From contig JAJZUU010000009.1 of the NCBI GenBank assembly GCA_021848325.1, positions 1,580-65,579 on the forward strand: a stretch of 64,000 nucleotides of DNA, written 5' to 3'. The stretch comes from Pseudomonadota bacterium. GTDB taxonomy: Bacteria; Pseudomonadota; Gammaproteobacteria; Burkholderiales; JAJZUU01. Numbering within the stretch: position 1 is the stretch's first letter; every line of letters begins with the position of its first letter. Positions 31,949-47,820 of this stretch are shown here, piece after piece. The notes under the pieces were generated by a model. It saw only the letters and a program-made list of their open reading frames with translations, had not been told where the DNA came from and ran no database searches. Position numbers and translations under genes: made by a program.

Positions 31949-32016
31949 ACCTCCAGATATATTCCGCAAGGCATTGTTTCGTAATTGACTTGTTTCTGAT
32001 CGGCAACATGAATCTT

Positions 32017-32055
32017 GCCCGGATGGCGGAACAGGTAGACGCTACGGACTTAAAA
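32017..32055 (+). pseudogene. leuZ: tRNA-Leu(UAA) 5' half (acceptor, D arm, anticodon 5' stem and loop), separated from its 3' half by the insertion
   Basis: GCCCGGATGGCGGAACAGGTAGACGCTACGGACTTAAAA. Joined to 47821-47868 it gives a perfect 87-nt class II tRNA. Confidence 0.9.
32047..32055. repeat. attL core (GACTTAAAA)
   Basis: Identical 9-mer at 47812-47820. Corresponds to the last 2 nt of the anticodon stem plus the 7-nt anticodon loop. Confidence 0.8.
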
Positions 32056-33336: not shown

Positions 33337-33762
33337 ATGGCTACCCAAGAGAATATCAAACCAGCGACCGAAGCCGCAGAGCGCGACGCACTCAACGAAG
33401 CCGCAGAGCGCGACGCACTCAACGAAGCAAGCATGGCACTCGGCCGGGCGTGGGGACTTGCTGAAACCCTATGTTTTCAAGCGGGCGAACGCCCCGACGA
33501 TTTCGACGTCGAGGGCGTCATGCGCGTGATTCACTCGCTGGTGGGCCAAGCGAAGGCGAAGGTAGGCGCTCGGGCCGTTGATCTGGAAATCGACGCCGCG
33601 CTGGCGGTTTGTTGTCTGGTCATGGTGGATTCCCAGGAAAGCGCCTATGACCCCGGCTCGTCGTCATCGTGGGCACTTGAGGCTGTACCGAGCGCTATTC
33701 AGCGCGCGAAGGATGCAGTCGACGCTGTGCCCTGGGGCCTCCCTCAACTGAAAGCCGCTTGA
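33337..33762 (+). CDS. hypothetical protein with an internal 9-aa duplication
   Basis: 141-aa ORF with RBS AAGGAG. No family recognised. Followed by a terminator. Confidence 0.55.
   Translation: MATQENIKPATEAAERDALNEAAERDALNEASMALGRAWGLAETLCFQAGERPDDFDVEGVMRVIHSLVGQAKAKVGARAVDLEIDAALAVCCLVMVDSQESAYDPGSSSSWALEAVPSAIQRAKDAVDAVPWGLPQLKAA
33370..33423. repeat. perfect 27-bp tandem duplication (2 copies plus 5 nt of a third)
   Basis: GAAGCCGCAGAGCGCGACGCACTCAAC x2, encoding EAAERDALN twice. Confidence 0.95.
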
Positions 33763-33767
33763 TTCCG

Positions 33768-33789
33768 GCCGCCTGCGGGCGGCTTTTTT
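33768..33789 (+). terminator. intrinsic terminator
   Basis: Stem GCCGCC/GGCGGC with loop TGCG, followed by a T6 run. Confidence 0.75.
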
Positions 33790-33830
33790 ATTCGATGACG
33801 TATAAATAACTTTGTGCCTGTTTGTGATGC

Positions 33831-33859
33831 TTGGCAATCGGTGGCGGTCAAGGTATAGT
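33831..33859 (+). promoter_or_regulatory. sigma-70-like promoter
   Basis: TTGGCA, 17-nt spacer, TATAGT. Confidence 0.6.
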
Positions 33860-33865
33860 CGCTGA

Positions 33866-34067
33866 CAGTATCTCGAAACGAAAACCGCGAAGCCAGACCG
33901 CAACGACTGGTGCAGTACGAGGCAACACCCCCGAGCGAAAGCTAAAGGTGGTGGTAACGGCCCCCAAGGAATGCACCGCCCTTGGAACCGATACCCCCTA
34001 GCCCCCGGCTAGGACAGGCGCTTAGAGATATAGACCGGAGCACTACATGCTGCCGGTCTTTTCATTT
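33866..34067 (+). ncRNA. candidate ~200-nt structured leader/small RNA ending in an intrinsic terminator
   Basis: Lies between promoter 33831-33859 and hairpin GACCGGAGCA...TGCTGCCGGTC plus TTTTCATTT (34033-34067). Internal hairpins CCAAGG/CCTTGG and CTAGCC/GGCTAG. No convincing ORF. Confidence 0.4.
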
Positions 34068-34102
34068 GTGGCGACCGGTAGCACCTCGCAGGAGAGTGCG
34101 CC

Positions 34103-34342
34103 ATGCAAACCACGAACACCCAAGAAGCATTTGAGTTAAGCGACCTTCGCGCCGTCGAAGCGCTCGCCGCCGAAAATCCCAAGTACCTGACTGTATCCAC
34201 GCTGCGCTGGCAGCTTCGCCACCGTGACACCAACGGCCTGGCCGCCGCGTGCGTGCGCGTCGGCAAACGCCTGCTGATTTCCAAGTCGCGTTATGAGCAC
34301 TGGCTGGCGACCCAAACCGAAGCGGCGCGGGGTGTGGCATGA
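34103..34342 (+). CDS. excisionase/AlpA-type helix-turn-helix DNA-binding protein
   Basis: 79 aa with RBS AGGAGA. HTH_17-like sequence LTVSTLRWQLRHRDTNGLAAACVRVGKRLLISKSRYEHWL. Confidence 0.7.
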   Translation: MQTTNTQEAFELSDLRAVEALAAENPKYLTVSTLRWQLRHRDTNGLAAACVRVGKRLLISKSRYEHWLATQTEAARGVA

Positions 34343-34620
34343 GCTACGCCGCCAACATCCCCCCGCAACTTGATTTCAGCAAGCGCGGCATGTGCGCCGC
34401 CCTCAACATGGCCGAGGACGAGTTCACCGACGCCTACCGTAACAAGGAAATCGCGCCCCCGGATAGCGTGCGCTTACGCGAGCCTAGGTGGTCAGTGATG
34501 GCCCTGGGGCAGGAAATCAAGAAACGCACCCCGGCGCATCTGGTGGGGCTGGAAGCCCTGAACTATCAGCTTGAAGCACTGGCTCGCGCCGAACGTGCAG
34601 AAGGGTGGCGACATGACTAA
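34339..34620 (+). CDS. hypothetical protein
   Basis: 93 aa. ATGA overlap with the upstream gene indicates translational coupling. Confidence 0.55.
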   Translation: MSYAANIPPQLDFSKRGMCAALNMAEDEFTDAYRNKEIAPPDSVRLREPRWSVMALGQEIKKRTPAHLVGLEALNYQLEALARAERAEGWRHD

Positions 34621-37081
34621 TGCAACCGCCCGTGCCATTGCGGCGCTACAAAAAGAAATGGCCTCAGGGGAAACTGAGGCCAGCAAAGAAAAAACCACTG
34701 TAAGCGAGAGTGTACCGAGTGCCAAAAATTTAGGCAACGGTCAGTTCGCCGAGCACGGCGCCGCTTTGCTTGCCAACGGCTATTTAATCATTCCAATCAA
34801 GCCGGGCCACAAGCGCCCGGCACTCGACAACTGGCAAACCGCACGACTTGGCGCCGCTGACCTGACCCGATACCCTAACCATGGCGTCGGTGTGCTGTGC
34901 GGGCAAGGTGCCCAGCCCATTGCCGCTATCGACGTGGATACTACGGACGGTGCATTGACTACCCGGTTCGTGGGTTGGTGCCAGGAACACCTCGGCGCCA
35001 CGTGTGAGCGCGTGGGCTTCGCGCCCAAGATCCTGCTCGCCTACCGGGCAGCGTCCGAAGGCTGGGGCAAGGCTACCGGCGCCTGGTTCGAGGACTTGGG
35101 CGGTGCGCGGCACCGGCTGGAAGTGCTGGGCAAGGGTCAGCAGTTCGTGGCCTACCATATCCACCCGGACACGGGCGAGCCCTACGAGTGGGTGGATTTC
35201 TTCGGCGGCCTCGATGCCATGCGGGCCGGCGACCTGCCCATCATCACCGAGGCCCAGGTCGAAGAAGCCCTGCAGGTGTTCGAGGCCATGGCCGAGGAAG
35301 CCGGGCTCGTGCGCGTGTCGGGCAGCAAGACCAAGGCTGGGGGCATGACCTCGGCGCCGGTCGACGACCCGCTCATGGCCTATGAGCCACCGGTCGGCAT
35401 TGACATGGGAGAGGCCCGGCGCCTTGTGTCCTACGTGGATAACGAGGACTACGACACCTGGCTGAAAGTCGGCATGTCGCTGCACCACGAGTTCGACGGC
35501 GACGTGGCCGCGCTGGATTTGTGGGATGAATGGTCGAGCACGGCAACGAACTACGCCAGCCGTGAGGACTTGGAGAAGCGGTGGGATAGCTTCGGCCGAT
35601 CGGGGCGCAACCCGACGACGGCGCGCTGGCTGCTCAAGGTAGCGGGCGAAGCAAAGAAGCCCGACCATGATGCTGGCCGATTAGACGCGGCACGCCGCGA
35701 ACACCAGAAGCAGGAAAACGAGCGCATTGGCAACGGCAACGGCCGTTACCCGACCGTCGAGGTTATCGACCTGAAAGCCGCATTGACCCGATTCGTTTTC
35801 ATGTCGGACGGTTCTCGCGTCGCCGACATCTTCAACCCGCACTACGATCTGGCCTTTTCCGACTGGTCGGCCACGTTCGCAGCCTCGAAGGAGCCGATAT
35901 GGGACGACGAGAAGCGGAAGGAGAAGCTGGTGGCTGTTCCGCTCTTGTGGCGCGCATCGAAGGAGCGCAAGACCGTGGTTTGCCGCACCTTCAAAGCAGG
36001 CGGTGCGCCGGTTCTCAACGATCCCAACGGGAAGCTGGCGCTGAACACCTGGCGCCCGTTTGATCGCACTGCGAACGTGCAGGACATGGCAGCGGCCGGG
36101 GTGGATCTGTTCCTGGATCACGTCGACCTGCTATTCGGGAAGGATGCCCCGCGTTTCCTCGACTGGCTGGCGCATATTGAGCAACGCCCCGGCGAACTCC
36201 CCCATACGGCGTGGCTGCACATTGCCAAGCACTTCGGCCTGGGCCGCAACTGGATGGAATCGGTACTCGCCCGCGTTTGGGCCGGCGCCGTGGCCGCCAA
36301 TCTTGACCTTGTTTCAGTGCTCAAGAAAGACGGCTACAACGGCCGGCTTTCTTGCAAGGTGCTGGCCGTGGTCGATGAAATTCGGGAAGGCGGCCGCGAC
36401 GCGCAGTGGGAGCACTCGGAGAAAATGAAGAGCATCATCACCGAGGAAACGCGGCAGATTAACCCGAAGTACGGGCGTCAGTCGGTAGAGTTCAATGCGT
36501 GCCGCTGGTTGATGTTCTCCAACCACTTGTCGGCCATCCCCCTAGAAGATGGCGACCGACGCATCGAGGTTGTCTATACCGAGGCCCGGCCACGGGGGGC
36601 AGATTACTACGCCAGGCTGTACTCCGTGCTCGACGATGCCATGTTCATCGCCGCCGTAGCGAAGTACCTGGGCGAGCGTGACATTGGCGCATTCAATCCG
36701 GGTGCCCACGCCGTCAATAGCGAATCGAAGAAGGCGGCAACCAAAGCGAGCCAAACCCCAATGGCAGCATGGTGCGAAATGCTGGTCGAGCACTGGCCCA
36801 GTGACCTGATTATGTCGCAGCACCTTTTCGACATCCTGGCGCGCGATGGTGCAGGCGGATCGCTCAACGCCGCACACCGACGAACCTTGGAGCAGCACGG
36901 CGTTGAAGCCCTGGGCAAGCCGTTGAAGGTGGAAGGCCGGCCGGTGCGCGTTTCAATTGTTCGCAACAAGGAACGGTGGAAACAGGCAGAACCTAACAAC
37001 CTGCGCGACGAGTTGGCGAAGGCCAATCCCGGATTGGACAGTGCCCGCGACTACCTGATGGAGTTTGCAGCGTGCGGGTAA
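34613..37081 (+). CDS. replication protein: bifunctional primase-polymerase N-terminal domain + PriCT-like + SF3/D5-type helicase-like C-terminal domain
   Basis: 822 aa. Prim-pol-like GYLIIPIKPGHKRP...GVGVLCG...IDVD, PriCT-like YDTWLKVGMSLHHEF and helicase-like LAVVDEI (Walker B). Start at ATG 34613 with RBS AAGGGTGG (34571 is an alternative). Confidence 0.8.
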   Translation: MTNATARAIAALQKEMASGETEASKEKTTVSESVPSAKNLGNGQFAEHGAALLANGYLIIPIKPGHKRPALDNWQTARLGAADLTRYPNHGVGVLCGQGAQPIAAIDVDTTDGALTTRFVGWCQEHLGATCERVGFAPKILLAYRAASEGWGKATGAWFEDLGGARHRLEVLGKGQQFVAYHIHPDTGEPYEWVDFFGGLDAMRAGDLPIITEAQVEEALQVFEAMAEEAGLVRVSGSKTKAGGMTSAPVDDPLMAYEPPVGIDMGEARRLVSYVDNEDYDTWLKVGMSLHHEFDGDVAALDLWDEWSSTATNYASREDLEKRWDSFGRSGRNPTTARWLLKVAGEAKKPDHDAGRLDAARREHQKQENERIGNGNGRYPTVEVIDLKAALTRFVFMSDGSRVADIFNPHYDLAFSDWSATFAASKEPIWDDEKRKEKLVAVPLLWRASKERKTVVCRTFKAGGAPVLNDPNGKLALNTWRPFDRTANVQDMAAAGVDLFLDHVDLLFGKDAPRFLDWLAHIEQRPGELPHTAWLHIAKHFGLGRNWMESVLARVWAGAVAANLDLVSVLKKDGYNGRLSCKVLAVVDEIREGGRDAQWEHSEKMKSIITEETRQINPKYGRQSVEFNACRWLMFSNHLSAIPLEDGDRRIEVVYTEARPRGADYYARLYSVLDDAMFIAAVAKYLGERDIGAFNPGAHAVNSESKKAATKASQTPMAAWCEMLVEHWPSDLIMSQHLFDILARDGAGGSLNAAHRRTLEQHGVEALGKPLKVEGRPVRVSIVRNKERWKQAEPNNLRDELAKANPGLDSARDYLMEFAACG

Positions 37082-37098
37082 TACCTTGCAGCGAACAC

Positions 37099-37261
37099 GT
37101 AACCGGCCGCCGATTGGTGGCCGTTTTTGTTTGGGCGGTTACGCTGGTTACGCTGGTTACGCTCAATATATAAACGTCAAACCATTCATTTTATTGATGG
37201 TTACTTTTTAGAAACGCCGTAACGAGCGTAACGAGCGTAACCGACCGCCGATTGGTGGCCG
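37099..37261. other. putative replication origin: inverted iteron triplets flanking an AT-rich core
   Basis: GGTTACGCT x3 (37137-37163), a 50-bp AT-rich stretch (37164-37213), then an inverted AGCGTAAC(C/G) x3 (37216-37242). Bracketed by a direct 25-bp repeat GTAACCG(G/A)CCGCCGATTGGTGGCCG (37099 and 37237). Confidence 0.65.
37104..37133 (+). terminator. intrinsic terminator after the replication gene
   Basis: Stem CGGCCGCC/GGTGGCCG (one G.U) with loop GATT, followed by TTTTTGTTTG. Confidence 0.65.
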
Positions 37262-37278
37262 AATTTCCGCGCAGTACG

Positions 37279-37520
37279 TGCGCGCGAGGCAACAAAAAAA
37301 ATTGACACCTGAAAAAGGCCCAAACTTCACGCATCGCGCGCGGGCATGCGCGTGTGGGGCTGGGCATCCGCACACCTGAAAAAGGGGCGGCAGCGCCTTG
37401 CTAGACGCATCGCGCGTGCGCATGCGCGCGAGGCAGACGTCCTAGGCCTCTAGACGATGGGGACCTAATCTCGCGCGTGCGCATGCGCGCGAGGCAGACA
37501 CCGTCCAGACACCTGAAAAA
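37279..37520. repeat. GC-rich repeat array / probable operator region
   Basis: 28-bp perfect repeat CGCGCGTGCGCATGCGCGCGAGGCAGAC at 37411-37438 and 37472-37499, with a related TGCGCGCGAGGCAAC at 37279. ACACCTGAAAAA at 37305, 37372 and 37509. ACGCATCGCGCG at 37329 and 37405. Confidence 0.85.
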
Positions 37521-37688
37521 ACGGCCGCAACGGATCAACTGACCGCTGGCAATCAAGCAACAGTGCGCCCTCAGCCGGCGTGTGCGTAATCCCGAGCGTA
37601 AAGGGCATGGTGCACGTACCTCGTAGGGGTGCCCGTACCTTTCTGTCTGACAAATACAGTCATCCCATGACCACCGGACAGAAACGAC

Positions 37689-37889
37689 ATGCCCAAGCTG
37701 ATAACCCTCGAAGAAGCTGCCGCCCGATGCGGCATTTCGCGCCGGACGGTGGATCGCTACGTCGAGCGCGGGCAGTTCGTGGCTCTCTATCAACTCCCTA
37801 CCGGCCACCTTCGCGTTGATGAGCACGACCTCAACGCTTGGCTGGCCGCATGCCGCACCGACAACCAACCGAAGGAAGCCACCCAATGA
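37689..37889 (+). CDS. excisionase/MerR-type helix-turn-helix DNA-binding protein
   Basis: 66 aa, LITLEEAAARCGISRRTVDRYVERGQF...LRVDEHDLNAWL. Confidence 0.7.
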   Translation: MPKLITLEEAAARCGISRRTVDRYVERGQFVALYQLPTGHLRVDEHDLNAWLAACRTDNQPKEATQ

Positions 37890-38782
37890 GAACCGCAGCC
37901 ATCGACAAGGAACTCGCCAAAGAGCACGAACAGCTTGGCGAGGCCCGAGCAGCAGCAGCCGAAGCCGCTGAGAAGCTGTCCACCGAACCCGGCAACAAGA
38001 AACATCGTTTGGCCGTGCTGGAAGCGCAGGCACGAGCCGATGAAATCAACGTGACCATCGAGGCCCTTAACCTGGCCCGCGAGCAGGCGGTCAAATTCGA
38101 TCAGTCCGAGGAAGGCCAGGCCACCCGCGCCAAGCGGGCGTCGATGGTGGCAACCGTGCGCGATGCCAATGCACAAATGGTTGCAGCAGCGGCCGCCGTC
38201 GACGAGGTGCTGGCCGCACTGCGCACCTGCGCCGTGCAATTCGCCGACGCTCGCTTGGCCGCTCAAAGTGCTAGTGCCGCCTATCTCGACCTGAACGAGA
38301 GCGACCTCGACGCCCGGATGCACGACTACCAAGCCCTGAACCACGAACCCGGCAACGTGGCGCACGCCTTGGCATTGACACTGCACGACATTGTTACTGC
38401 CACCGGACTGGATTGCAGCCACTTCCTCACGTTCAACCCCTACACGCTGACGCCCAACAGTGGCGTGGGCGGTGAATTCTTGCGAACCCTTGAACAAGGA
38501 GCACGGGCCAACACCCTGCGCGCTGTCACAACCCTGGCACATATCGAGGCAGTGCATACCGGCACCTATGTGCCGCCACCGCCCATGGAGCAGCCCAGAC
38601 CCAACCTGCACGCCGACCACTTCATCGCCGCGAACTTCAACGAACTGATGGAGCACGTTGCTGCAACCGGCGAAGAGCCAGCCCTCGACCCGGACGAAAC
38701 GCACACGATTGCAAAGGATTGGGACGAATACTTGGCTGCAACCTCGGGCCTCGAATCGCCCAAGGTGCTGCACCAGGAGTAA
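37886..38782 (+). CDS. hypothetical alanine-rich, predominantly helical protein (scaffold-like by composition only)
   Basis: 298 aa. ATGA overlap with the upstream HTH gene. N-terminal coiled-coil-like region. Confidence 0.6.
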   Translation: MRTAAIDKELAKEHEQLGEARAAAAEAAEKLSTEPGNKKHRLAVLEAQARADEINVTIEALNLAREQAVKFDQSEEGQATRAKRASMVATVRDANAQMVAAAAAVDEVLAALRTCAVQFADARLAAQSASAAYLDLNESDLDARMHDYQALNHEPGNVAHALALTLHDIVTATGLDCSHFLTFNPYTLTPNSGVGGEFLRTLEQGARANTLRAVTTLAHIEAVHTGTYVPPPPMEQPRPNLHADHFIAANFNELMEHVAATGEEPALDPDETHTIAKDWDEYLAATSGLESPKVLHQE

Positions 38783-38788
38783 CCAGCG

Positions 38789-38995
38789 ATGAATTACACC
38801 CCCGTCAATGTGCCGCTGCAAAGCCCCGAGCGCGTGGTCTATCCGCACGAGGTGACACCACCGCGTGAGTGTGAGGTCAGCAGGCCGAGCCCGACAGAGG
38901 CAGCGACATCCTGGTCGGGCTTCCACAAGCGGGGGTGCTATGAGCGAAGAAGCCAAGCGATACATCGTGCGCGAATACCTCGATCTTCACCCTGA
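38789..38995 (+). CDS. hypothetical small protein (uncertain)
   Basis: 68-aa ORF with a good RBS (AGGAG 9 nt upstream), but it overlaps the next ORF by 56 nt. Confidence 0.3.
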   Translation: MNYTPVNVPLQSPERVVYPHEVTPPRECEVSRPSPTEAATSWSGFHKRGCYERRSQAIHRARIPRSSP

Positions 38996-39122
38996 CAAAG
39001 AATTCCGGCGCGCGGTCTTTGCGTTGCTGCTTCTCGACAAACCTGAGCACCTAGACACGCTCTACGACATGGCCGTGCGCTTCGGCATGTGCGGCGAGAT
39101 TGTCGAGGGCGTTTTCATTTAA
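38940..39122 (+). CDS. hypothetical small protein
   Basis: 60 aa (MSEEAKRYIVREYLDLHPDKEF...) with RBS GGGGGTG. Confidence 0.45.
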   Translation: MSEEAKRYIVREYLDLHPDKEFRRAVFALLLLDKPEHLDTLYDMAVRFGMCGEIVEGVFI

Positions 39123-39134
39123 GGAGTCTTAACC

Positions 39135-39578
39135 ATGGCAATCATCGACGCAGCAACGCAGTTTTCCAACGCTCAAACCGTGACCGGTGCGAGCGCTGTC
39201 CTTTCCGCCAATACCCTTGATGCGCTACAGAACCGCGATATGGGCGGTGGTAAATCTTTTCAGGTGCTGTTTCAGGTCGGCACCGCATTTGCCGGCCTGA
39301 CGGCCCTCGAAATGCAGATCATCACGGCCGACGATGCCGGCCTGACCACGAACGTGAATGTGCTGGGCAGTACGGGTGCCATTCCAGTGGCTTCGCTGAC
39401 GGCGGCCGCCAGGTTCTACGCCAGCATCAACCCGCGCATCGGCAACAAGGGGCAGCGCTACATCGGCTGCCGCTACATCCCGACCGGCACCGGCACGGCT
39501 GGCACGATCAGCGCGCAAATCGGTGGCGACGTGGGCGACTTCAAGCCGGTTTATCCAACCGGCTATTCCGTGGCTTAA
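39135..39578 (+). CDS. Bbp16-like (phage capsid cement/decoration-type, jelly-roll) protein
   Basis: 147 aa with RBS AAGGAG. Pattern FSNAQTVTGASAVLSANTLD...RDMGGGKSFQVLFQV...ALEMQIITADD...RYIGCRYIPTGTGTAG resembles the Bbp16 family as I remember it. Not verified by search. Confidence 0.5.
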   Translation: MAIIDAATQFSNAQTVTGASAVLSANTLDALQNRDMGGGKSFQVLFQVGTAFAGLTALEMQIITADDAGLTTNVNVLGSTGAIPVASLTAAARFYASINPRIGNKGQRYIGCRYIPTGTGTAGTISAQIGGDVGDFKPVYPTGYSVA

Positions 39579-39589
39579 GGGGAACAATC

Positions 39590-40117
39590 ATGGACGTTGG
39601 AGGCGCAGGGATATTTTTACAGGCGGCCGGGGCCGTCAATTCGGCTATCGGCAGCTACTACAGCGCGAAGTCCCAGCAAAGCAGCCTGCGCTTCGCCGCA
39701 GACATCGCCGACATCAATGCGCGCATTTCCGAAATCGGGGCGCAATCTGAATTGATGAAGGGCGAGCGCGAGATTGGCGCCCTCACGATGCGTTACGGCC
39801 AGATGAAGTCCACGCAGCGCGCCTCACTCGCAGCAAACGGCGTGGATTTGGGCGAAGGCAGCGCGGCCGAGATCCAAGCCTCTACCGACATCCTCAAGGA
39901 AATCGACGCCAACACGCTGAACTCCAACGCTGTGCGCAGCGCCTGGGGCTATCGCACACAGGCGACCAACTACCAGAATGACGCCATCTTAAAGCGTGCC
40001 ACGGCCAGCACTATCGACCCACTTGGGGCGGGCCTCACGTCACTGCTGGGCAGCGCTGGCAGCGTGGCGAGCAGTTGGTACAACTACAACAAGGCGAGCG
40101 GCCAGCAGGTGCGGTGA
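39590..40117 (+). CDS. T7 gp14-like internal virion protein candidate
   Basis: 175 aa. Gly/Ala-rich hydrophobic N- and C-termini flank a long Q/A/S-rich helical region, with the size and composition of podovirus inner-core proteins. Confidence 0.45.
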   Translation: MDVGGAGIFLQAAGAVNSAIGSYYSAKSQQSSLRFAADIADINARISEIGAQSELMKGEREIGALTMRYGQMKSTQRASLAANGVDLGEGSAAEIQASTDILKEIDANTLNSNAVRSAWGYRTQATNYQNDAILKRATASTIDPLGAGLTSLLGSAGSVASSWYNYNKASGQQVR

Positions 40118-40629
40118 TGAGAACCATCGGGCTTTCTGCAAAAGGGAAGGTGGTAGGCGAATACGTGCCATCGGCAAAACTGACCTTTGCCCAGGTAGAG
40201 GAAATGCGCGCCCTGGCAACAGGCGGCCTCACATACACCGAAATTGGCGCCAGGTTTGGTGTTTCCAGATCGAGCGCGGCCAGGGCCATCAAGGGCGAAA
40301 CCTGGGCAGTTCCGGTAGCAAGGCTGGTGCAGCAGATCGAAACCGAGGACTTGGCCGCACTCACTTCTGGCGAGGGGCGGCTGCTGATTGCCAAAAAGGC
40401 CGGGGCGACTACCGGGTCAGTTGAACGAGCCATGAAGAAGACCGGCATTGCCTGGGATGGAAATATCAGGAAGCAGAAGCATTCCCATTGCAAGCAGGGG
40501 CACCCCCTGGAGGGTCAGAACCTGATTGTGAGGAAAAACGGCACCCAAGCCTGCCGAGAGTGCAGCCGGGAACGGGGGCGCACATTTGCACGGAGAAAGC
40601 GCGATGACGCTCGCCGTGGCCGTGAATGA
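40117..40629 (+). CDS. HTH DNA-binding protein with C-terminal Cys/His zinc-ribbon-like motif
   Basis: 170 aa. AKLTFAQVEEMRALATGGLTYTEIGARFGVSRSSAARAIKG, and HCKQGHPLEGQNLIVRKNGTQACRECSRER. Start overlaps the previous stop by 1 nt. Confidence 0.6.
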   Translation: MRTIGLSAKGKVVGEYVPSAKLTFAQVEEMRALATGGLTYTEIGARFGVSRSSAARAIKGETWAVPVARLVQQIETEDLAALTSGEGRLLIAKKAGATTGSVERAMKKTGIAWDGNIRKQKHSHCKQGHPLEGQNLIVRKNGTQACRECSRERGRTFARRKRDDARRGRE

Positions 40630-40834
40630 CGCCGGTTTGCGCATCGGTGAGGATCATCCGAACGCCAAGCTGACCGATGCCGAAGTGGAACGCATCCGCA
40701 GCCTGCACGAGGAAGGCATGGGCTACGAGGCTATCGCCGAAAAATACGAAGTAAGCAAGTGGTGCATCGGGCGTATTTGCCGATACGAACGCCGGGGGCA
40801 AACCACTGCACGCTGGAAAACAATCGAGGAGTAA
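40604..40834 (+). CDS. small HTH DNA-binding protein (paralogue of the N-domain of 40117..40629)
   Basis: 76 aa, HPNAKLTDAEVERIRSLHEEGMGYEAIAEKYEVSKWCIGRICRYERR. RBS GGAGA upstream of ATG 40604. Confidence 0.55.
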   Translation: MTLAVAVNDAGLRIGEDHPNAKLTDAEVERIRSLHEEGMGYEAIAEKYEVSKWCIGRICRYERRGQTTARWKTIEE

Positions 40835-40839
40835 AACCC

Positions 40840-43449
40840 ATGCCAACCGTACCCCGTTTCGACGGCCCGCAAGTAACGCCCAACACCTTGCCCCAGGTGC
40901 GAGTCGATACGCCTGAGTTCCACAACTACGCCGCCGACCAGGCGCAGCAATTAGGGCGGGCCATGAGCAACTTCGGCGGCCACATGACCGAGATTGCCAC
41001 CGACGCGCAAAACGAAGCCAACAAGACTGTGGCCAAGGACATCGACACGCAAGCCACGGCGGCTATCGGTGACGTGCTGTACAACCCGCAGAGCGGTTAC
41101 ATGGTCAAGGAAGGCAAGGACGTGGTCGCCGGCTATGGCGATGCAACCGAAGCCCTCAAGCAAGTGCGCCAGAAGGCCCTCGATGGGGTGCAGAACACGG
41201 CAGTGCGCCAAATGGTCGAGCCGGTCATCAATGCCCGGATGCAGAATGCCCTCGAAACGATCAACCGGCATTCAGGCACCGAAACTCGCCGCTATCAGGT
41301 GCAGACCTCGGATTCGCGGGCCATCGTCACGTTGCAGGACGCTGCCTTCAACTACGACGATGACAAGCGCTTCAACGAAGCCCTGGCCGTCACGCGGGAT
41401 GAAACCAACAACCTAGCCAAGCTGCAAGGCTGGGACGAAGCCACGGCACGCTTGCAGGCGCAGAAATACGCCGACACCGGCAACCGCATGCGCTACGAAG
41501 CCTGGGCAATCAAAGACCCGGTGGCCGCCTTCGCCCACTTCCAGCAAAACGCCGAGGGAATAAGCCCGCTGGTGCGCGACAACATCGGCCGCCAGCTTTT
41601 CCAGCATGCTGCCCCGGTGCTCGCCACCATTGTGAATCAGACAGGCGGGCCAGGCGTGGTGCCCTCTGCACCGGGCGACATGACAGCGCCGCGCGGCATC
41701 CGCAACAACAACCCTGGCAACGTCATGCGCGGCAGCGACACGTGGCAGGGTGAGGTGCAAGGCAACGACCCGCGCTATGCCAGCTTTGCGACGCCCGAGG
41801 CCGGCATACGGGCCATGGGCAAGACCCTCATCAACTACCAGGATAAGCACGGCATCAACACCGTGGAAGGCGTCGTGTCGCGCTGGGCGCCAGCCACCGA
41901 GAACAACACGGCCGCCTACGTCGCCACCGTGGCGAAGGAAATGGGCGTCAAGCCCGATGCAAACCTCGATTTGCACGACCCCGCAACGCTCAACAAGCTG
42001 ACCCGCGCTATGATTCGCGTCGAGAACGGCAAGCAGCCGTACACGGACGATCAGATCGCGCTGGGTCTGGCTGCCGCCACCGGCAACACCCCACTGCCAA
42101 CGGCGGCCAGTGCCAAGCGCGACCCCAATGCCTCTACCGGCATCGGCCTGGTTGACGGCCTGCCCGCCGACTGGAAGCTGCATGTGTTGCAGCTTGCGCG
42201 CAGCCAGGCGCATCAAGACATGGCCGAGGCCCGCGAATCGCTGCGCGGCCGGGTGCAGGATGCCAGCGCCGAGTATATGGCGAATGGCTTTGCATCCAAC
42301 CCGCCGAACGAGGCCGAATTTATCCGCGCTTATGGACAGGCCGAGGGCGCCGGCCGGTACCGTGATTTCCAAAGCGTCGCCACGCTGGGTCAAACCCTGC
42401 AACAGGTACGCACGTTGCCGAACGCCGCGCTCAACGACTTGTTGAAATCCTCGAAGCCCACACCGGGCGACGGCTTCGCAGTGCGGCAGCACAACTTCGA
42501 GATTCTTTCGGGGGCTATCGACACCGTGGTGAAGGCTCGCACCCAAGACCCGGTGGCCTACGCACTGACCGGCAAGAGCTACGGCCTTCGCCCGATTCAG
42601 CGCTTCGATGATCCACAGGGCACGGCCCAGGAGCTTGCCCGTCGAGCGGCCGCAGCGCCGCAAATGTCGGCCGACTACAACACGCCGCCGCGCCTCTTGT
42701 CCAACGCCGAGGCCAGCGCACTATCGGCCACGCTCAAGGCCAGTCCGGTGGAAGGGCAAAAGCAACTGCTGGGCACCATTGCAAAAAGCATCAACGACAT
42801 GGGCCTGCTCAAGGCGACCATGCAGTCCATTGCGCCAGATTCGCCCACGGTAGCCGTGGCCGGCATCTATCAGGCGCGCGGCCTGCGCACGACGGAAAAC
42901 CGCGACGTGGCCGACCTCATCCTGCGCGGGCAGGCCATCCTTACCCCGAACAAAAAGGAGGACGGCAGCGGCCACATGGGCGGCGCGTCGCTCATCAAGA
43001 TGCCCGAGGAAAAGCTGCTGCTATCCGACTGGACAAGCGCGACCGGCGACGCTTTCAAAGGCCGCGAGCAGGCCGCCGACCTGTTCATGCAAACCGCCAA
43101 GGCCATCTATGCGGCCCGCAGCGCCGAGGAAGGCGACTACTCGGGCGTGATCGACTCGAAGCGCTGGAAGGCCGCCATCAACCTGGCAACGGGCGGCATC
43201 GAGAGCCACAACGGCAGCAAGATCGTGATGCCCTACGGCGTGCCCTATGACAAGTTCCAGAATGCGCTGCAGGGCCAGGTCGACCGCATCGTGAAGGACG
43301 GCGGCGCACTAAACACCTCGACGCGCGAAATGATGCGTCTGCCACTGGAAAACGTCGGCGACGGCCGCTATCTGTTCCGGCGAGGCACCGGCTATCTGGT
43401 GGGCAAGGATGGCCGCCCGGTGGTGGTCGATTTGAACGGGGGCCGCTGA
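40840..43449 (+). CDS. large virion-associated (internal/ejection-type) protein candidate with GIRNNNPGN motif domain
   Basis: 869 aa with RBS GAGGAG. N-terminus MPTVPRFDGPQV... and central PRGIRNNNPGNVMRGSDTWQGE...YASFATPEAGIRAM, both recalled from phage structural proteins. Confidence 0.55.
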   Translation: MPTVPRFDGPQVTPNTLPQVRVDTPEFHNYAADQAQQLGRAMSNFGGHMTEIATDAQNEANKTVAKDIDTQATAAIGDVLYNPQSGYMVKEGKDVVAGYGDATEALKQVRQKALDGVQNTAVRQMVEPVINARMQNALETINRHSGTETRRYQVQTSDSRAIVTLQDAAFNYDDDKRFNEALAVTRDETNNLAKLQGWDEATARLQAQKYADTGNRMRYEAWAIKDPVAAFAHFQQNAEGISPLVRDNIGRQLFQHAAPVLATIVNQTGGPGVVPSAPGDMTAPRGIRNNNPGNVMRGSDTWQGEVQGNDPRYASFATPEAGIRAMGKTLINYQDKHGINTVEGVVSRWAPATENNTAAYVATVAKEMGVKPDANLDLHDPATLNKLTRAMIRVENGKQPYTDDQIALGLAAATGNTPLPTAASAKRDPNASTGIGLVDGLPADWKLHVLQLARSQAHQDMAEARESLRGRVQDASAEYMANGFASNPPNEAEFIRAYGQAEGAGRYRDFQSVATLGQTLQQVRTLPNAALNDLLKSSKPTPGDGFAVRQHNFEILSGAIDTVVKARTQDPVAYALTGKSYGLRPIQRFDDPQGTAQELARRAAAAPQMSADYNTPPRLLSNAEASALSATLKASPVEGQKQLLGTIAKSINDMGLLKATMQSIAPDSPTVAVAGIYQARGLRTTENRDVADLILRGQAILTPNKKEDGSGHMGGASLIKMPEEKLLLSDWTSATGDAFKGREQAADLFMQTAKAIYAARSAEEGDYSGVIDSKRWKAAINLATGGIESHNGSKIVMPYGVPYDKFQNALQGQVDRIVKDGGALNTSTREMMRLPLENVGDGRYLFRRGTGYLVGKDGRPVVVDLNGGR

Positions 43450-44729
43450 TGAGCTTCGACCTTTTCCCGAATGAGCAAGGGGCCGCGCTGCTGAATGCGG
43501 CGCGCCATCCTTCCACCACGCCCGAGCCCGGCGCCTTCGACAACTTCTTCAGCGGCGCCGGGCAATACACCATGCGCAGCCTGGCCGAAGCAGGCCGGGC
43601 CGTGTCCCTGGCCGGTGCTGTTGTGCCCATGGCAATCGACAAGATGACTGAGGGCGACAATTTCAGCGGCAAGAGCCTGACCGACCGCTACTTTGAAACC
43701 CACGACGAGGTGTTCAACAACGCCGTCGACTACTGGACGCCGAAGCCCGGCGAGGTGGGCGCAGCCGGCCAGATTACTGGGCAGCTTGCCGGGGGCATCT
43801 TGCAGGCTGTTGTGCATCCGGCCTTGTTGGTCGGCACCGCCGCGCTGTCGCCGGCCGAGGACTTGGTGCGCGAGGGCGTGGATGCGAGCACGGCCACCAA
43901 GGTGGGCGTCATCCAGGGCGCGGGCGCCGCCATCGGCTTGAAAATGCCGTTTCTCGGGCAGACGCTCGCCACGCGCGTGCTGTCTGGCGCGGGCGGCAAC
44001 CTGTTACAGGGCACGGCAGGCGCGGCCGCATCGTCGGGCGTGCTCAAGGCCGAGGGCTACGACCAGCAGGCCGAGCGATTCAACCCGTGGGATATGCGCG
44101 CCCGCATACTCGACACGATGCTTGGGGCCGCTTTCGGCGGCCTGGCGCACATCGGTGCGAAAGGCGAAGCCAAGGCGCCCAAGCTGACCCCGACCGACGA
44201 GGCCGCGCTGTTGGTGGCGAATCAGGCGCGGCATATCGAGGACGTGACCCCGCAGGGCCGGCCGGCGACCGATGCCGACGCAACGATGCACGCCGATGCG
44301 ATGCGCCAGGCCGTCGAGCAGGTGCTGCGCGGCGAGCCGGTCACTATCGACGGCCTGGTCAAGGACATGCACATGGTGCCCGACGAGGCACTGACACGGC
44401 AGCGCACCGAAGTGACCGACGAGGCCCAGCGCATCGCGGCCCTGGAAGCACCCATCGAGGCCCCCATCCTGCCCAAGATCGAGCCCGGCGCGCCCGTGGC
44501 TGATGCCATCCCGGCCGAGCACAACCCGGCGAGCCTCAAGGCACGGCAGGCTGTTGTGGATCGCCCCGACCTGACCATTCCGACCAACCGCACCGACGCG
44601 GACGGCAACCCCATCACCCTGCGCGCCGCCGACGCGCTGGCCCTGGCTGATGCCGATGTGGCGCACGCCCAGGCTACCGCCGCCAGCGTGTTCAAAACGG
44701 CAGCCCATTGCCTTCTAGGAGCCCTGTAA
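43449..44729 (+). CDS. hypothetical Gly/Ala-rich protein with hydrophobic segments (ejection-protein-like)
   Basis: 426 aa. Start overlaps the previous stop. Contains GAAGQITGQLAGGILQAVVHPALLVGTAAL and GVIQGAGAAIGLKMPFLG stretches. Confidence 0.5.
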   Translation: MSFDLFPNEQGAALLNAARHPSTTPEPGAFDNFFSGAGQYTMRSLAEAGRAVSLAGAVVPMAIDKMTEGDNFSGKSLTDRYFETHDEVFNNAVDYWTPKPGEVGAAGQITGQLAGGILQAVVHPALLVGTAALSPAEDLVREGVDASTATKVGVIQGAGAAIGLKMPFLGQTLATRVLSGAGGNLLQGTAGAAASSGVLKAEGYDQQAERFNPWDMRARILDTMLGAAFGGLAHIGAKGEAKAPKLTPTDEAALLVANQARHIEDVTPQGRPATDADATMHADAMRQAVEQVLRGEPVTIDGLVKDMHMVPDEALTRQRTEVTDEAQRIAALEAPIEAPILPKIEPGAPVADAIPAEHNPASLKARQAVVDRPDLTIPTNRTDADGNPITLRAADALALADADVAHAQATAASVFKTAAHCLLGAL

Positions 44730-47347: not shown

Positions 47348-47645
47348 TGGTGCCTGGGACGGGAATCGAACCCGTATAGCTTTCGCCGAGGGATTTTCGT
47401 CACACTACGGCTTTCGCCGCCAGCCTTCGCCGTTCGTGCGCTGGACTATGCCTTCACCATGGCGCTGCGCGCTGTAGGTGCCCCCCGTCTAGTCTCTACA
47501 CCTTCCCCTTGCGAGGCTTGGCTCGGCGTTGCCTCGGCCCGAAGGTCAGGGGTTTCACCGAATTTGAGGGGATTCACGCGGGCGCTTTCGCTCCCCGGTG
47601 CTCAATGTTTAAGTCCCTTGTGTCTACCAATTTCACCACCCAGGC
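47348..47645 (-). tRNA. tRNA-Leu (anticodon UAA) gene interrupted by a group I intron
   Basis: Exons 47645-47611 and 47397-47348 join to an 85-nt class II cloverleaf with all four stems Watson-Crick paired and loop CTTAAAA. Confidence 0.88.
47398..47610 (-). ncRNA. group I intron (bacterial tRNA-intron type, IC3-like), 213 nt, no ORF
   Basis: P1 CTTAA/TTGAG places a U.G wobble at the 5' splice site, and the intron ends in G. Core strings TCAAATTCGGTGAAACC, GGCAACGCCGAGCCAAGC and GAAGGTGTAGAGACTAGACGG are present. Confidence 0.85.
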
Positions 47646-47811: not shown

Positions 47812-47820
47812 GACTTAAAA
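47812..47820. repeat. attR core (GACTTAAAA)
   Basis: Identical to 32047-32055. Confidence 0.8.

Follow-up and report, generated by a model that had tools for sequence, protein, structure and literature searches.

What is a gene for a capsid cement protein doing in an integrated element that has no capsid gene? The window analysed here, a 64-kb stretch of DNA, contains such an element at approximately 32056-47820 (15,765 bp, about 15.8 kb). The first-pass annotation had proposed a satellite that supplies its own capsid-accessory proteins to a helper podovirus, and had pointed to two reading frames, 37886-38782 and 39135-39578, both of which are present. Independent computational lines support that proposal. 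The features of the element are collected in Table 1.

The element interrupts a host tRNA-Leu(UAA) gene at the anticodon loop, and direct repeats of a 9-bp att core, GACTTAAAA, flank it at both ends within the split gene. When 32017-32055 is joined to 47812-47868, the product folds as a tRNA-Leu-like cloverleaf whose acceptor arms (GCCCGGA/TCCGGGC) are complementary; the gene is not restored at the left junction. The element has a tRNA-Leu(UAA) gene of its own, with a promoter-like site at 47686-47658. A group I intron of 213 nt (47610-47398) splits this gene in the anticodon loop, with U34 on one side and A35 on the other, a splice position of the classical Leu.3Ug type (10.1101/2020.01.27.920355). 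The intron scored 37.2 bits against Rfam RF00028 (E=8e-8), below the cutoff of 50, and the joined exons were read by ARAGORN as a perfect 85-nt tRNA-Leu(taa). The element inactivates the host gene and probably makes up for this with its intron-containing copy. A degenerate additional tRNA-Leu 5' fragment was observed at 31909-31953.

The integrase, the Xis-type HTH protein and the primase/helicase named in the first-pass annotation were borne out by matches to PF00589, PF12728 and PF09250/PF08707/PF19263, respectively. The three domains of the 822-aa replication protein were matched at E=9e-9 (PF09250), 2.8e-20 (PF08707) and 1e-13 (PF19263), and the protein as a DNA primase at E=3.5e-71 (phrog_1156). 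Flanked by att repeats, the element can thus be counted as a mobile unit with integration and replication genes of its own, and the backbone of integrase, HTH_17 and Prim-Pol/PriCT_2/DUF5906 protein is, judged by family matches, self-contained. The non-coding region at 37098-37540 contains a terminator-like hairpin (37104-37123), three copies of GGTTACGCT, repeats of GTAACGAGC, three copies of ACACCTGAAAAA and two of TCGCGCGTGCGCATGCGCGCGAGGCAGAC; a palindromic motif is also enriched, with 12 matches against 3.8 expected. This is a probable origin and regulatory region. The three small ORFs upstream of the primase gene found nothing in the Pfam or PHROG scans. All three are kept at 90-99% in L003, one of the related loci (given L numbers here) with which the element was compared, and orf93 is 47% identical to an ORF of L109. 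The stop of the HTH_17 gene overlaps the start of the p298 gene by 4 nt, and a gene for an HTH_17 protein likewise lies ahead of the p298-family gene in L003, L107, L115 and L116.

Table 1. Features of the element and its junctions (positions in the 64-kb window).
Position	Strand	Feature	Evidence
32017..32055	+	Host tRNA-Leu(UAA) 5' half, left junction	Ends in att core GACTTAAAA (32047-32055); repeat family D1
32138..33256	+	Tyrosine integrase, 372 aa	Pfam PF00589 E=1.6e-26; phrog_1 integrase E=4.4e-54
33337..34620	+	Three small ORFs (141, 79 and 93 aa) upstream of primase	No Pfam or PHROG match
34613..37081	+	Replication protein, 822 aa: Prim-Pol, PriCT_2, DUF5906 (SF3-helicase-like)	Pfam, PHROG
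37098..37540	.	Non-coding region, repeats clustered about an AT-rich stretch	Repeat families D8, D10, D13, D16
37689..37889	+	AlpA/Xis-type HTH_17 protein, 66 aa	Pfam PF12728 E=7.4e-11; phrog_66 excisionase/regulator E=1.2e-11
37886..38782	+	p298, predicted all-helical protein, 298 aa	Coding frame, AF2, small family
38789..38995	+	Small ORF (MxYTPVN...PERVVYPHE...) conserved in related elements	Frameshifted in window by 16-bp deletion
38940..39122	+	orf60, small protein	Common to L003 and L007
39135..39578	+	Bbp16-family capsid cement/decoration protein, 147 aa, predicted jellyroll fold	Pfam, PHROG, PDB, AF2/Foldseek
39590..40117	+	T7 gp14-like internal virion protein, 175 aa, phiV10 p17 homologue	phrog_418 E=5e-27
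40117..40834	+	Two paralogous HTH proteins, hth170 (40117-40629) and hth76 (40604-40834)	Pfam/PHROG scans
40840..43449	+	Internal virion protein, 869 aa, phiV10 p18 homologue	phrog_992 E=8e-121
43449..44729	+	Internal virion protein, 426 aa, phiV10 p19 homologue	phrog_1145 E=2.5e-31; tblastn phiV10 p19 E=7e-19
44730..47258	+	Internal virion/structural protein, 842 aa, phiV10 p20 homologue	phrog_684 E=5e-232, full length
47348..47645	-	Element-borne tRNA-Leu(UAA) with group I intron	Rfam, ARAGORN
47812..47868	+	Host tRNA-Leu(UAA) 3' half, right junction	Begins with att core GACTTAAAA (47812-47820); repeat family D14

The earlier identification of the 147-aa protein as Bbp16 cement was confirmed by profile and by predicted structure. 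Pfam PF21190 (Bbp16) was matched at profile positions 1-115 of 115 (E=3e-15, 57 bits, cutoff 27.1), phrog_427 at E=4.9e-17 and the PDB chain 8cjz_B, 'Capsid Decoration Protein', at E=1.4e-12. The AlphaFold2 model is strand-rich (pLDDT 77, pTM 0.74) and gave just two Foldseek matches at E<=1e-3, to 8cjz_A of the Carin1 capsid entry (E=3.5e-7, TM 0.68/0.76) and to 3j4u_H of the BPP-1 capsid entry (E=1.7e-5, TM 0.64/0.66); the predicted fold is an eight-stranded jellyroll as in the BPP-1 cement. On profile and model grounds the protein is a Bbp16-family capsid cement protein, and it is 64% identical to the Bbp16 of L111, a 42-kb phage contig with a GP7-type capsid. Binding between HK97-fold capsomers, and a requirement for infectious particles, have been established for the Bbp16 of BPP-1 only (PMC3863775). 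A GP7-type capsid gene lies about 1 kb upstream in 79 of 80 Bbp16 loci on IMG/VR viral contigs, where the order is scaffold, GP7 capsid, Bbp16, adaptor, nozzle; the Bbp16 gene of the element does not have this position directly after a GP7-type major capsid gene. The lack of an adjoining capsid gene is a feature of the context and not a property of the protein.

The gene upstream of Bbp16 had been called scaffold-like. That it is a real coding gene with an all-helical product was upheld, but homology to scaffolds was not: comparison with a phage scaffold profile gave an hhalign probability of 0.3%, and no match was found in Pfam, PHROG or PDB. Nucleotide differences from L003 concentrate at third codon positions of the p298 frame (11/10/28), and the 391-aa ORF antisense to it has the reversed pattern. 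The AF2 model has helices throughout and is confident just for a hairpin at residues 1-80. The family numbers 29 clusters at E<=1e-3 among 1.84 billion representatives, with homologues in L107, L109, L007, L113, L114, L115 and L116, and is absent from the IMG/VR viral contigs searched. One possibility is that p298 is a capsid-assembly or size factor. The small ORF that follows it is intact in L003, L107, L114 and L116, and alignment with L003 places the 16-bp deletion that frameshifts it in the window at about 38925/38926. Neither orf60 nor orf141 has a significant match to any Pfam or PHROG family, and orf60 was rejected as a relative of phage scaffolds (hhalign probability 1.3%).

The first-pass annotation was incomplete in one respect, as it left unrecognised a cassette of four ejection-protein genes at 39590-47258. 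These genes are collinear with p17-p20 of phiV10/epsilon15 (tblastn with phiV10 p17, p18, p19 and p20) and homologous to them along their full length, and include those for a gp14-like and a wall-hydrolase protein. The gp14-like protein scored 24.8 bits against Pfam T7_gp14, under the cutoff of 27; it is 33% identical to phiV10 p17 and 69-71% identical to its homologue in the phage contigs L143 and L152. The 869-aa protein is 30% identical to phiV10 p18 over its full length, and in its central cell-wall-hydrolase-like region there are further matches to phrog_873 ('endolysin') and to phrog_7182 ('tail injection transglycosylase'). The ATG at 40840 was taken as its start, since it is at residue 28 of the longer ORF that the PHROG alignment sets in. 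The 842-aa protein is 39% identical to phiV10 p20. By homology, the 175-, 869-, 426- and 842-aa ORFs are a full set of podovirus internal-virion (ejection) proteins. The gene order in the element is that of phiV10 p11 plus p17-p20, with p12-p16, tail genes included, missing, and p298, Bbp16 and the four internal-virion proteins form one co-directional virion block. Of the two HTH proteins encoded within the cassette, hth170 carries a Cys/His motif in its C-terminal part, with matches to PHROGs labelled 'HNH endonuclease'. Homologues of hth76 (identity <=76%) are encoded shortly upstream of a small-terminase match in phages L111, L143, L152 and L194, and others lie beside the ejection-protein cassette in L008, L009, L010 and L109. 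A role for the pair in regulation or packaging may be supposed.

The reported absence of capsid, portal, terminase, tail and lysis genes withstood more sensitive searching. Pfam and PHROG scans of all ORFs of the element gave no match to any of these classes, and queries with phiV10 TerS, TerL, portal, scaffold, capsid, adaptor, nozzle and fibre proteins returned nothing in the 64-kb window. The window holds no helper phage, and the element itself no scaffold homologue, recognisable small terminase or packaging signal. With all its ORFs screened, the element lacks the capsid, portal, terminase and tail genes that a satellite would take from its helper. The first-pass annotation had regarded a capsid or packaging module in the large ORFs as the finding that would count against a satellite; these ORFs do encode virion components, the internal virion proteins, yet no such module, and that objection therefore falls. 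Set beside L111 and phiV10, the locus was also rejected as a complete epsilon15/BPP-1-type prophage: its boundaries enclose 15.8 kb, in which there is no gene for terminase, portal, scaffold, GP7 capsid, adaptor, nozzle, fibre or lysis.

Could the element instead be an autonomous minimal virus, with a helper-free shell made from the Bbp16 jellyroll and/or from p298 as a novel coat or scaffold? Jellyroll proteins are the major capsid proteins of many viruses (PMC3863775), p298 occupies the position of a capsid gene just 5' of Bbp16, and the element has replication and ejection genes of its own. We nevertheless consider this extremely improbable. None of the fully screened ORFs encodes a packaging ATPase or a portal, or has a tail or lysis function, and the ejection proteins are part of a delivery system that depends on a tail. 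Bbp16 accompanies the GP7 capsid protein in nearly all of the phage loci described above and in BPP-1 has an auxiliary role, as cement on a shell of HK97 fold (PMC3863775), while p298 is predicted to be all-helical.

Related elements bear on whether the virion genes are in use. L003 is a 95-98% variant of the window element, and the substitutions in its virion genes and p298 are mostly synonymous: the synonymous/nonsynonymous codon differences are 98/17 for the 842-aa protein, 61/12 for the 869-aa, 36/8 for the 426-aa, 19/2 for the gp14-like, 28/12 for Bbp16 and 25/16 for p298. L109, on a contig of about 16.1 kb, is a second full member. Its 353-aa integrase and D5_N primase differ from those of the window element, and an imperfect repeat of its own lies on either side, an att site unlike that at tRNA-Leu. 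It also encodes a p298-family protein, Bbp16 (69%), a gp14-like protein (62%), an HTH protein and proteins of 884, 550 and 849 aa (66-82%), all its protein identities falling within 62-82%. Neither circular nor terminally redundant contigs were found. A locus with ejection genes only and no visible mobility genes, L011, was noted in a Roseomonas MAG.

A Bbp16 gene without a capsid gene upstream is found in seven distinct elements (window, L003, L107, L109, L114, L009 and L132). In L107, L114 and L003 it co-occurs with the p298 family; in L009 and L132 the protein upstream of Bbp16 was not detected by the p298 profile. The capsid-less relatives keep the order HTH_17, p298-like, (scaffold homologue), Bbp16, some of them with a DnaB helicase or a small terminase. 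In a neighbour-joining tree the 842-aa proteins of the elements (68-98% identity) form one clade of their own, to which complete phages, at 58-62% identity, are sister.

These comparisons weigh on the reading of the locus as a decaying prophage remnant or chimeric island, which we hold to be quite unlikely. In that reading an integrase/primase island would by chance have taken up part of a podovirus structural operon, or be what is left of one, and the cement and ejection genes would be non-functional cargo. It would account for virion genes that are a subset of a phiV10-like operon with the order kept, for the frameshift in the small ORF downstream of p298, for ejection-only loci such as L011 and for the tRNA-Leu fragment at 31909-31953, as a record of integration and decay at the site. 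It does not sit well with the synonymous excess in all five virion genes and p298, nor with the recurrence of the gene set with different integrases, replicases and att sites. It would also need identical losses each time, of capsid, scaffold, portal, terminase, adaptor and nozzle. The separate and diversified 842-aa clade, apart from the phages, indicates long persistence rather than repeated recent decay. Several results argue, at the level of sequence, for membership of a functional satellite lineage.

Some relatives carry further genes beside Bbp16. Homologues of the phage scaffold, having the C-terminal region in common with it, are present in L107, L009, L010, L113, L114 and L132 (hhalign probability 91%, E=1e-6, against the phage scaffold). 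L114 has an Sf6-type small terminase adjoining Bbp16, DUF5681 occurs in L009 and L107, and L132 has a 611-aa ORF which, read by eye, we take to be a putative large terminase. The scaffold homologue, small terminase and DUF5681 are classic hallmark functions of satellites. The two modules do not share their closest phage relatives, which makes the element a mosaic: GP7 phages that have a giant internal protein of 2155-2272 aa provide the nearest Bbp16 (64%), and the nearest phage 842-aa protein (62%) is from phages with a Phage_capsid_2 capsid in which Bbp16 was not detected. Bbp16 and p20-type ejection proteins do occur together in some phages (such as phiV10 and the IMG/VR contigs L167=L104 and L190=L103), and one helper could therefore provide the partners for both.

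An island for interference with phages, in which the cement and ejection copies act mainly as decoys that spoil assembly or ejection of an invading epsilon15/BPP-1-type phage, to the benefit of the host, and the element itself does not travel in particles, would explain why Pfam and PHROG identified no terminase or pac function in the window element, and module partners from different phage lineages would fit broad interference. P4, PICIs and PLE all interfere with their helpers through capsid-directed proteins. We still think this unlikely. Relatives have a small terminase or DUF5681 adjoining Bbp16, and L132 its putative large terminase; such genes make sense for packaging and not for defence alone. 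The near-equal size of the two complete members, 15.8 and about 16.1 kb, suggests a packaging constraint on size, and interference and transfer can in any case coexist.

The element is, in our judgement, probably an integrative satellite of an epsilon15/BPP-1-type podovirus, ie a phage with a GP7-type capsid and Bbp16 cement. Helper dependence, packaging and capsid resizing are what we infer, and events might run as follows. On induction of, or infection by, the helper the element would excise and replicate, and express its virion block. The helper terminase would package element DNA into shells made of helper capsid and portal proteins; the element's cement protein, perhaps with p298, would bind the helper capsid lattice. 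Its ejection proteins would be loaded into these particles, and the satellite DNA would then be delivered through the helper tail. The length of the element is 0.37-0.40 of that of the related 39-42-kb phages, a ratio that would fit a smaller shell, by geometry T=4 against T=7. Several observations weigh against this account: the 64-kb window has no helper, the element no identified packaging signal or small terminase, the p298 family no member found in IMG/VR viral contigs and no link to any capsid-assembly protein; circular contigs were not found, the modules have different phage relatives, and one small conserved ORF is frameshifted. There is about an even chance that this is the first recognised family of podovirus satellites, one that supplies the cement and the ejection set, steals shell, portal, motor and tail, and replaces a host tRNA. 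Read jointly with the window element, relatives in that division of labour would also supply a scaffold variant and a small terminase. If so, compact ejection proteins would let the satellite arm capsids that are too small for the far bigger internal proteins of the helper (up to 2155-2272 aa in the phages whose Bbp16 is nearest), and destruction of the host tRNA-Leu(UAA) with substitution of the intron-containing copy would leave the host reliant on the element. How mobile elements become hard to lose is a question apart, for which the tRNA swap provides a testable idea.

If the family works in this way, molecular piracy extends to the temperate podoviruses of Beta- and Gammaproteobacteria, and cement and internal virion proteins are interchangeable parts that can be hijacked. 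It would also offer natural systems for the recruitment of ejection proteins into procapsids and for the setting of capsid size by cement or scaffold variants. The family has a clear signature, a Bbp16 gene without an upstream capsid gene and adjoining a p298-family gene, and is readily detected, which makes it feasible to take a systematic census and to look for pairs of helper and satellite. Literature searches found no description of this satellite family, in keeping with the first-pass remark that the combination is undescribed.

Among known systems, the virion genes resemble those of epsilon15/phiV10 and BPP-1-type temperate podoviruses, the probable type of helper, with homologues of p11 (Bbp16-like), p17, p18, p19 and p20 in the same order, and with gp14-like and hth76 proteins up to 71% and 76% identical, respectively, in phage contigs L143 and L152. 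The element differs from these phages in its size, 15.8 kb against 39-42 kb, and in having its own integrase and primase module. In its integrative nature, size and backbone it resembles AH14b of Pseudomonas (16.8 kb), which has an integrase/AlpA/primase backbone (PMC4936722), and the marine VEIMEs, which have the same type of backbone (PMC9618062). No capsid structural proteins are reported for either: AH14b is without structural-protein genes, and the VEIMEs are without major capsid structural genes. In both cases multimers are packaged, in helper capsids of full size. The present element differs from them in its five recognisable virion-protein genes.

Likeness to P4 lies in functional equivalents (integrase, AlpA-type HTH, a large primase/SF3-helicase replicase as putative counterpart of alpha, integration at a tRNA gene), in a size between about a third and 0.4 of that of the helper genome, and in a small operon laid out like sid/psu, with a capsid-surface protein encoded after a helical one. 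P4 Psu is a decoration protein. However, no ORF of the element matches the Sid, Psu, Delta or Eps families in Pfam or PHROG, its primase is of the Prim-Pol/PriCT_2 plus DUF5906 type, its inferred helper is a podovirus, and its four ejection-protein genes have no counterpart in P4. To our knowledge, the well-studied capsid-remodelling satellites (P4, SaPIs/PICIs, PLE and cf-PICIs) all exploit long-tailed phages, and we know of none, nor did literature searches give a counter-example, with ejection proteins or a copy of a cement protein.

With PICIs, SaPIs and PLE the likeness is through relatives of the element: the C-terminal scaffold homologue of L107, L009, L010, L113, L114 and L132 recalls the principle of SaPI CpmB, and L114, like the SaPIs, has its own small terminase. 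The window element differs in having neither a scaffold-derived gene nor one for a small terminase or packaging redirection. So far as we are aware, a cement-protein copy with an ejection cassette is not part of the described PICI, SaPI or PLE gene sets, and none was found in the literature. The element was rejected as a cf-PICI, since Pfam, PHROG and phiV10 queries found capsid, portal, protease/scaffold and head-completion genes all absent. It does share with cf-PICIs the principle of a satellite that encodes a substantial part of the virion and takes the remainder from its helper. The roles are reversed, however: cf-PICIs take tails from the helper and produce the capsid, the portal and the packaging proteins themselves, and the present element has none of the latter and provides the ejection proteins and the cement.

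The 147-aa protein encoded by the element had been assigned to the Bbp16 capsid cement family on its sequence pattern, and the assignment was correct: its sequence matches the family and its predicted fold matches capsid entries. The ORF matches Pfam PF21190 over all 115 profile positions (E=3e-15, 57 bits, curated cutoff 27.1), phrog_427 (E=4.9e-17) and PDB chain 8cjz_B, 'Capsid Decoration Protein' (E=1.4e-12). Its AlphaFold2 model, with 46 homologues as input, is strand-rich (pLDDT 77, pTM 0.74), and Foldseek gave just two significant matches in the PDB, both capsid entries: Carin1 8cjz_A (E=3.5e-7, TM 0.68/0.76) and Bordetella phage BPP-1 3j4u_H (E=1.7e-5, TM 0.64/0.66). In BPP-1, Bbp16 is a jellyroll cement protein which ties the HK97-fold shell and is needed for infectious particles (PMC3863775). 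The element's protein corresponds to p11 of phiV10, an epsilon15-like phage.

The observation of the first-pass annotation is confirmed and goes further than was noted there, the four ORFs after Bbp16 having been overlooked. Judged by their profile matches, they are podovirus internal-virion (ejection) proteins, and their genes are collinear with p17, p18, p19 and p20 of phiV10. The region from about 31.9 to 47.9 kb of the window contains a co-directional gene block on the + strand. Every remaining ORF of the element was screened against Pfam and PHROGs; they comprise a tyrosine integrase, three small ORFs, a Prim-Pol/PriCT_2/DUF5906 replicase, an HTH_17 protein of AlpA/Xis type, two small ORFs between the genes for Bbp16 and p298 (the 298-aa product), and two paralogous HTH proteins between the gp14-like and 869-aa genes. 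The phiV10 genes with no counterpart in the element are both terminase subunits, portal, scaffold (p09), major capsid protein (p10), p12-p13, tail proteins p14-p15, p16, tail fibre and the lysis genes. The unassigned ORFs are all too small to hide a portal or large terminase, and the screen bore out the earlier statement that capsid, portal, terminase, tail and lysis genes are missing. That the element is an autonomous virus is thus a most improbable reading.

Features of the element and its junctions (window coordinates)
Feature	Position	Strand	Size	Evidence or remark
Degenerate 5' tRNA-Leu-like fragment	31909-31953			76% identical to the 32012-32060 copy
tRNA-Leu(UAA) 5' half	32017-32055			adjoins integrase
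Element	~32056-47820		15,765 bp	
Non-coding region	37098-37540			after primase gene
p298	37886-38782		298 aa	
Small ORF	38789-38995			frameshifted relative to L003
Bbp16	39135-39578		147 aa	PF21190
gp14-like	39590-40117	+	175 aa	phrog_418 'internal virion protein' E=5e-27; weak Pfam T7_gp14 match
hth76	40604-40834			
869-aa ORF	40840-43449	+	869 aa	phrog_992 E=8e-121; wall-hydrolase-like region in centre
426-aa ORF	43449-44729	+	426 aa	phrog_1145 E=2.5e-31
842-aa ORF	44730-47258	+	842 aa	phrog_684 'virion structural protein' E=5e-232, full length
Element-borne tRNA-Leu(UAA)	47348-47645	-		just inside right end; 213-nt group I intron
tRNA-Leu(UAA) 3' half	47812-47868			15.8 kb from 5' half

A six-frame HMM search found no scaffold homologue in the window, in L003 (a contig with a 95-98% variant of the element) or in the related elements of L007 and L109. 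The small protein orf60 was considered as a CpmB-like mini-scaffold ('YLDLHPD' against the scaffold motif 'GLGNHPD') and rejected (hhalign probability 1.3%). The small ORF after p298 is frameshifted by a 16-bp deletion at ~38925/38926 relative to L003 (CAAACAAGTGCCACCG), and the deletion is also present in L004, an identical copy from a metagenome; the ORF is conserved in L003, L107, L114 and L116, and the C-terminal ...VPPQAGVL is kept.

The host locus reads uvrC, pgsA, tRNA-Gly, tRNA-Cys, element, aminotransferase, uvrB. A 9-bp anticodon-loop sequence, GACTTAAAA, is common to both junctions, the acceptor arms of the two tRNA-Leu(UAA) halves are complementary, and the boundaries of the element therefore follow from the shared sequence and the split halves. 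The host tRNA-Leu(UAA) is rebuilt at neither junction, which is unusual. The element-borne gene, with a promoter-like site just upstream, is split by an intron which scores 37.2 bits against Rfam RF00028, under the gathering score of 50 (E=8e-8, local search). ARAGORN misses the raw intron-containing sequence and reads the joined exons as a perfect 85-nt tRNA-Leu(taa). The splice position, CUU/a...g/AAAA between U34 and A35, is of the classical 'Leu.3Ug' type (10.1101/2020.01.27.920355). With its own gene split and an intron-bearing copy on the element, the host could come to depend on the element. The intron also breaks the 9-bp att-core-like sequence in the element's tRNA copy. Directly after tRNA-Cys lies a degenerate tRNA-Leu-like fragment, which may be the scar of an earlier integration at a hot spot; in L003 another integrase gene is found just upstream of the element. 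In the non-coding region that follows the primase gene, three copies of GGTTACGCT are succeeded by about 50 bp of AT-rich sequence and then by inverted GTAACGAGC repeats. A ACACCTGAAAAA box occurs there three times and TCGCGCGTGCGCATGCGCGCGAGGCAGAC twice, in exact 29-nt copies, and the region looks like an origin plus operator sites.

Compared with its 95%-identical L003 counterpart, the p298 ORF has codon-position differences of 11/10/28, ie mainly at the third position (25 synonymous and 16 non-synonymous codons), and a long antisense ORF opposite it has the reversed pattern; on this pattern p298 is a real gene. It had been described as a scaffold-like helical protein, of which the helical part stood: the AlphaFold2 prediction is entirely helical (mean pLDDT 52, confident at the N-terminal hairpin, residues 1-80, alone). 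The likeness to a scaffold did not, and the idea that p298 might be a capsid or scaffold protein which has diverged was rejected, since neither the protein nor its family profile has a match in Pfam, PHROGs or the PDB and hhalign against the phage scaffold profile gave a probability of 0.3%. The family is small, with 29 clusters at E<=1e-3 in an exhaustive HMMER search of 1.84 billion representatives; the single match from a word-indexed search was therefore a sensitivity artefact of the alanine-rich sequence. No member was found in the IMG/VR viral contigs. Where context is visible, an HTH_17/AlpA gene precedes the p298-family gene (L003, L107, L115, L116), which itself lies ahead of Bbp16 (L003, L107, L109, L114).

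That the element is a decaying remnant is unlikely, given the strong synonymous excess against L003 in every virion gene (synonymous/non-synonymous codons 98/17 for the 842-aa, 61/12 for the 869-aa, 36/8 for the 426-aa, 19/2 for the gp14-like and 28/12 for the Bbp16 protein), a second member and a clade of its own. The second complete member, on the 16.1-kb contig L109, encodes, in this order, an integrase of 353 aa unlike that of the window element, a primase of D5_N type, a 229-aa member of the p298 family, a 52-aa ORF, Bbp16 (69% identity), the gp14-like protein (62%), HTH proteins and 884/550/849-aa proteins (66-82%). An imperfect repeat of its own, TTGCCCATGCAnACnAATA, flanks it. In a neighbour-joining tree the 842-aa proteins of the capsid-less elements, 68-98% identical, form one clade: the window, L003, L007 (Noviherbaspirillum MAG), L008, L009 (Rhodocyclales MAG), L010 (Oceanococcaceae MAG), L018 and L109, plus L012, a short contig lacking genomic context. 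The sister group consists of complete phages with tail genes, at 58-62% identity. As a control, 79 of 80 IMG/VR Bbp16 loci have the order scaffold, GP7 capsid, Bbp16, adaptor, nozzle, gp14-like; the capsid gene is missing upstream of Bbp16 in one, L132. The synonymous excess, L109, the clade and this control argue that the element belongs to a functional lineage. None of the contigs L003, L007, L012, L013, L107 and L109 is circular or terminally redundant.

The family is modular, and its other members bring functions well known from satellites. L007 has p298 and the ejection-protein cassette and lacks Bbp16; L107 and L114 combine p298 with scaffold-like and Bbp16 genes and lack the cassette. 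A scaffold-like protein of 170-240 aa lies between p298 and Bbp16, or nearby, in L107, L113, L114, L009, L010 and L132. Over the C-terminal 90-100 residues this protein shares homology with the scaffolding protein of the phages (phiV10 p09; 208 aa in phage contig L111), with an hhalign probability of 91%, E=1e-6 and a common motif ...G-x-G-[ND]-H-P-[DE]... In L114, genes for an hth76-like protein, a small terminase of Sf6 type and an integrase come after Bbp16, and a DnaB helicase serves replication; L009 and L107 encode DUF5681 proteins. The replication modules differ (Prim-Pol/PriCT_2; D5_N; PriCT_2 plus a C-terminal part read as a RepA/DnaB-like ATPase; DnaB), and thus the capsid-related cassette is the constant part and the backbone exchangeable.

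The 5.7-kb IMG/VR contig L132 encodes Bbp16 together with scaffold-like and hth76-like proteins, one of its ORFs has a motif like that of DUF5681, and it appears to be one more of these capsid-less elements; its 611-aa ORF resembles, by eye, a large terminase, and L132 may be a relative bringing its own packaging motor. Neither tail nor capsid genes lie within 10 kb of the ejection cassettes in L011 (Roseomonas MAG, 4076-12052) and L018 (5992-12550); the former is flanked by seemingly ordinary chromosomal genes, and the latter adjoins ORFs for a DnaB-type helicase and acetyltransferase-like proteins. They may be satellites of further types or else remnants.

The closest phage Bbp16 (64%) is in the 42-kb contig L111, and L117 is similar. 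L111 has the order primase, hth76-like, Sf6-type TerS, TerL, portal, Bbp19, scaffold, GP7 capsid, Bbp16, adaptor, nozzle, gp14-like (56%) and SLT protein, followed by a polyvalent protein of 2155 aa. For hth76 (74-76%) and the gp14-like protein (69-71%) the nearest homologues are in phage contigs L143 and L152, and for the 842-aa protein (58-62%) in phages with a capsid of the Phage_capsid_2 family and no detected Bbp16 (L093). Nearest phage relatives therefore differ by gene, making the element a mosaic of the sampled lineages. Bbp16 and p20-type proteins occur together in phiV10 and in IMG/VR contigs L167=L104 and L190=L103, found by both searches. By identity hth76 is closer to phages than any other protein of the element: it reaches 76% identity to a gene in GP7/Bbp16 podovirus contigs which lies a short distance upstream of a small-terminase match (L111 886-1116; L143, L152, L194); it could be a late regulator or packaging-specificity factor. 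There is no helper prophage within the 64-kb window, the element's flanks being housekeeping genes with no phiV10-like structural matches, and none of 50,697 phage records matched 37600-47300 by megablast. In the phages themselves, phrog_458 and phiV10 p09 (L001, 5553-6248) carry the label 'protease'. The p09 gene, however, is located between those for portal and capsid, and a phrog_458 member, L093 347-1240, has a weak match to the T7 capsid assembly (scaffold) family. A scaffolding role is more likely for these proteins, and 'protease' is probably a mislabel.

The gene content, the boundaries, the conserved architecture and the missing capsid, portal, terminase and tail genes are what the analysis shows directly. 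Comparative genomics supports the earlier satellite reading, and the element is probably a satellite of a helper podovirus; an island acting by interference only is a rather unlikely alternative, marginally less so than a remnant. The satellite would excise via its integrase and HTH_17 protein and replicate via its primase-helicase, with the repeat-rich, AT-centred non-coding region as probable origin. The virion block would be expressed in helper late development. The helper terminase would package the element's DNA into helper-built shells, which the satellite's own cement protein would decorate or stabilise and into which its own ejection proteins would be loaded. At 15.8 kb and 16.1 kb, the two complete members reach 0.37-0.40 of the length of related phage genomes (39-42 kb), and a T=4 shell has by geometry (4/7)^1.5 = ~0.43 of the capacity of a T=7 shell; the sizes are compatible with small capsids and are not evidence for them. 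Phages with the closest Bbp16 have among their internal proteins one of 2155-2272 aa. Speculatively, such a protein may not fit or load into a small shell, which would be a rationale for the satellite's own ejection proteins.

P4-like satellites have a similar lifestyle and backbone, but homologues of psu, sid, delta and eps, their defining genes, are absent from the element. The helical nature of p298 and its coupling to Bbp16 recall P4 sid/psu, with no homology in support. A satellite-encoded scaffold variant is the principle of SaPI CpmB, and the relatives come close to SaPI/PICI strategies in their scaffold variants and small terminases, whereas the window element has neither. The cf-PICIs encode the opposite half of the virion. 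Pseudomonas AH14b lacks structural genes (PMC4936722) and marine VEIMEs lack major capsid structural genes (PMC9618062); identity with either was rejected, as both are without structural genes, unlike the element. Full-text literature searches found no description of a satellite with Bbp16-type cement or ejection proteins, and mentions of Bbp16 were confined to two papers; absence from the literature searched is no proof of novelty. As far as can be determined, the helper class and gene repertoire of the element are undescribed so far, and the element itself is best described as belonging to an already-known class, the phage satellites.
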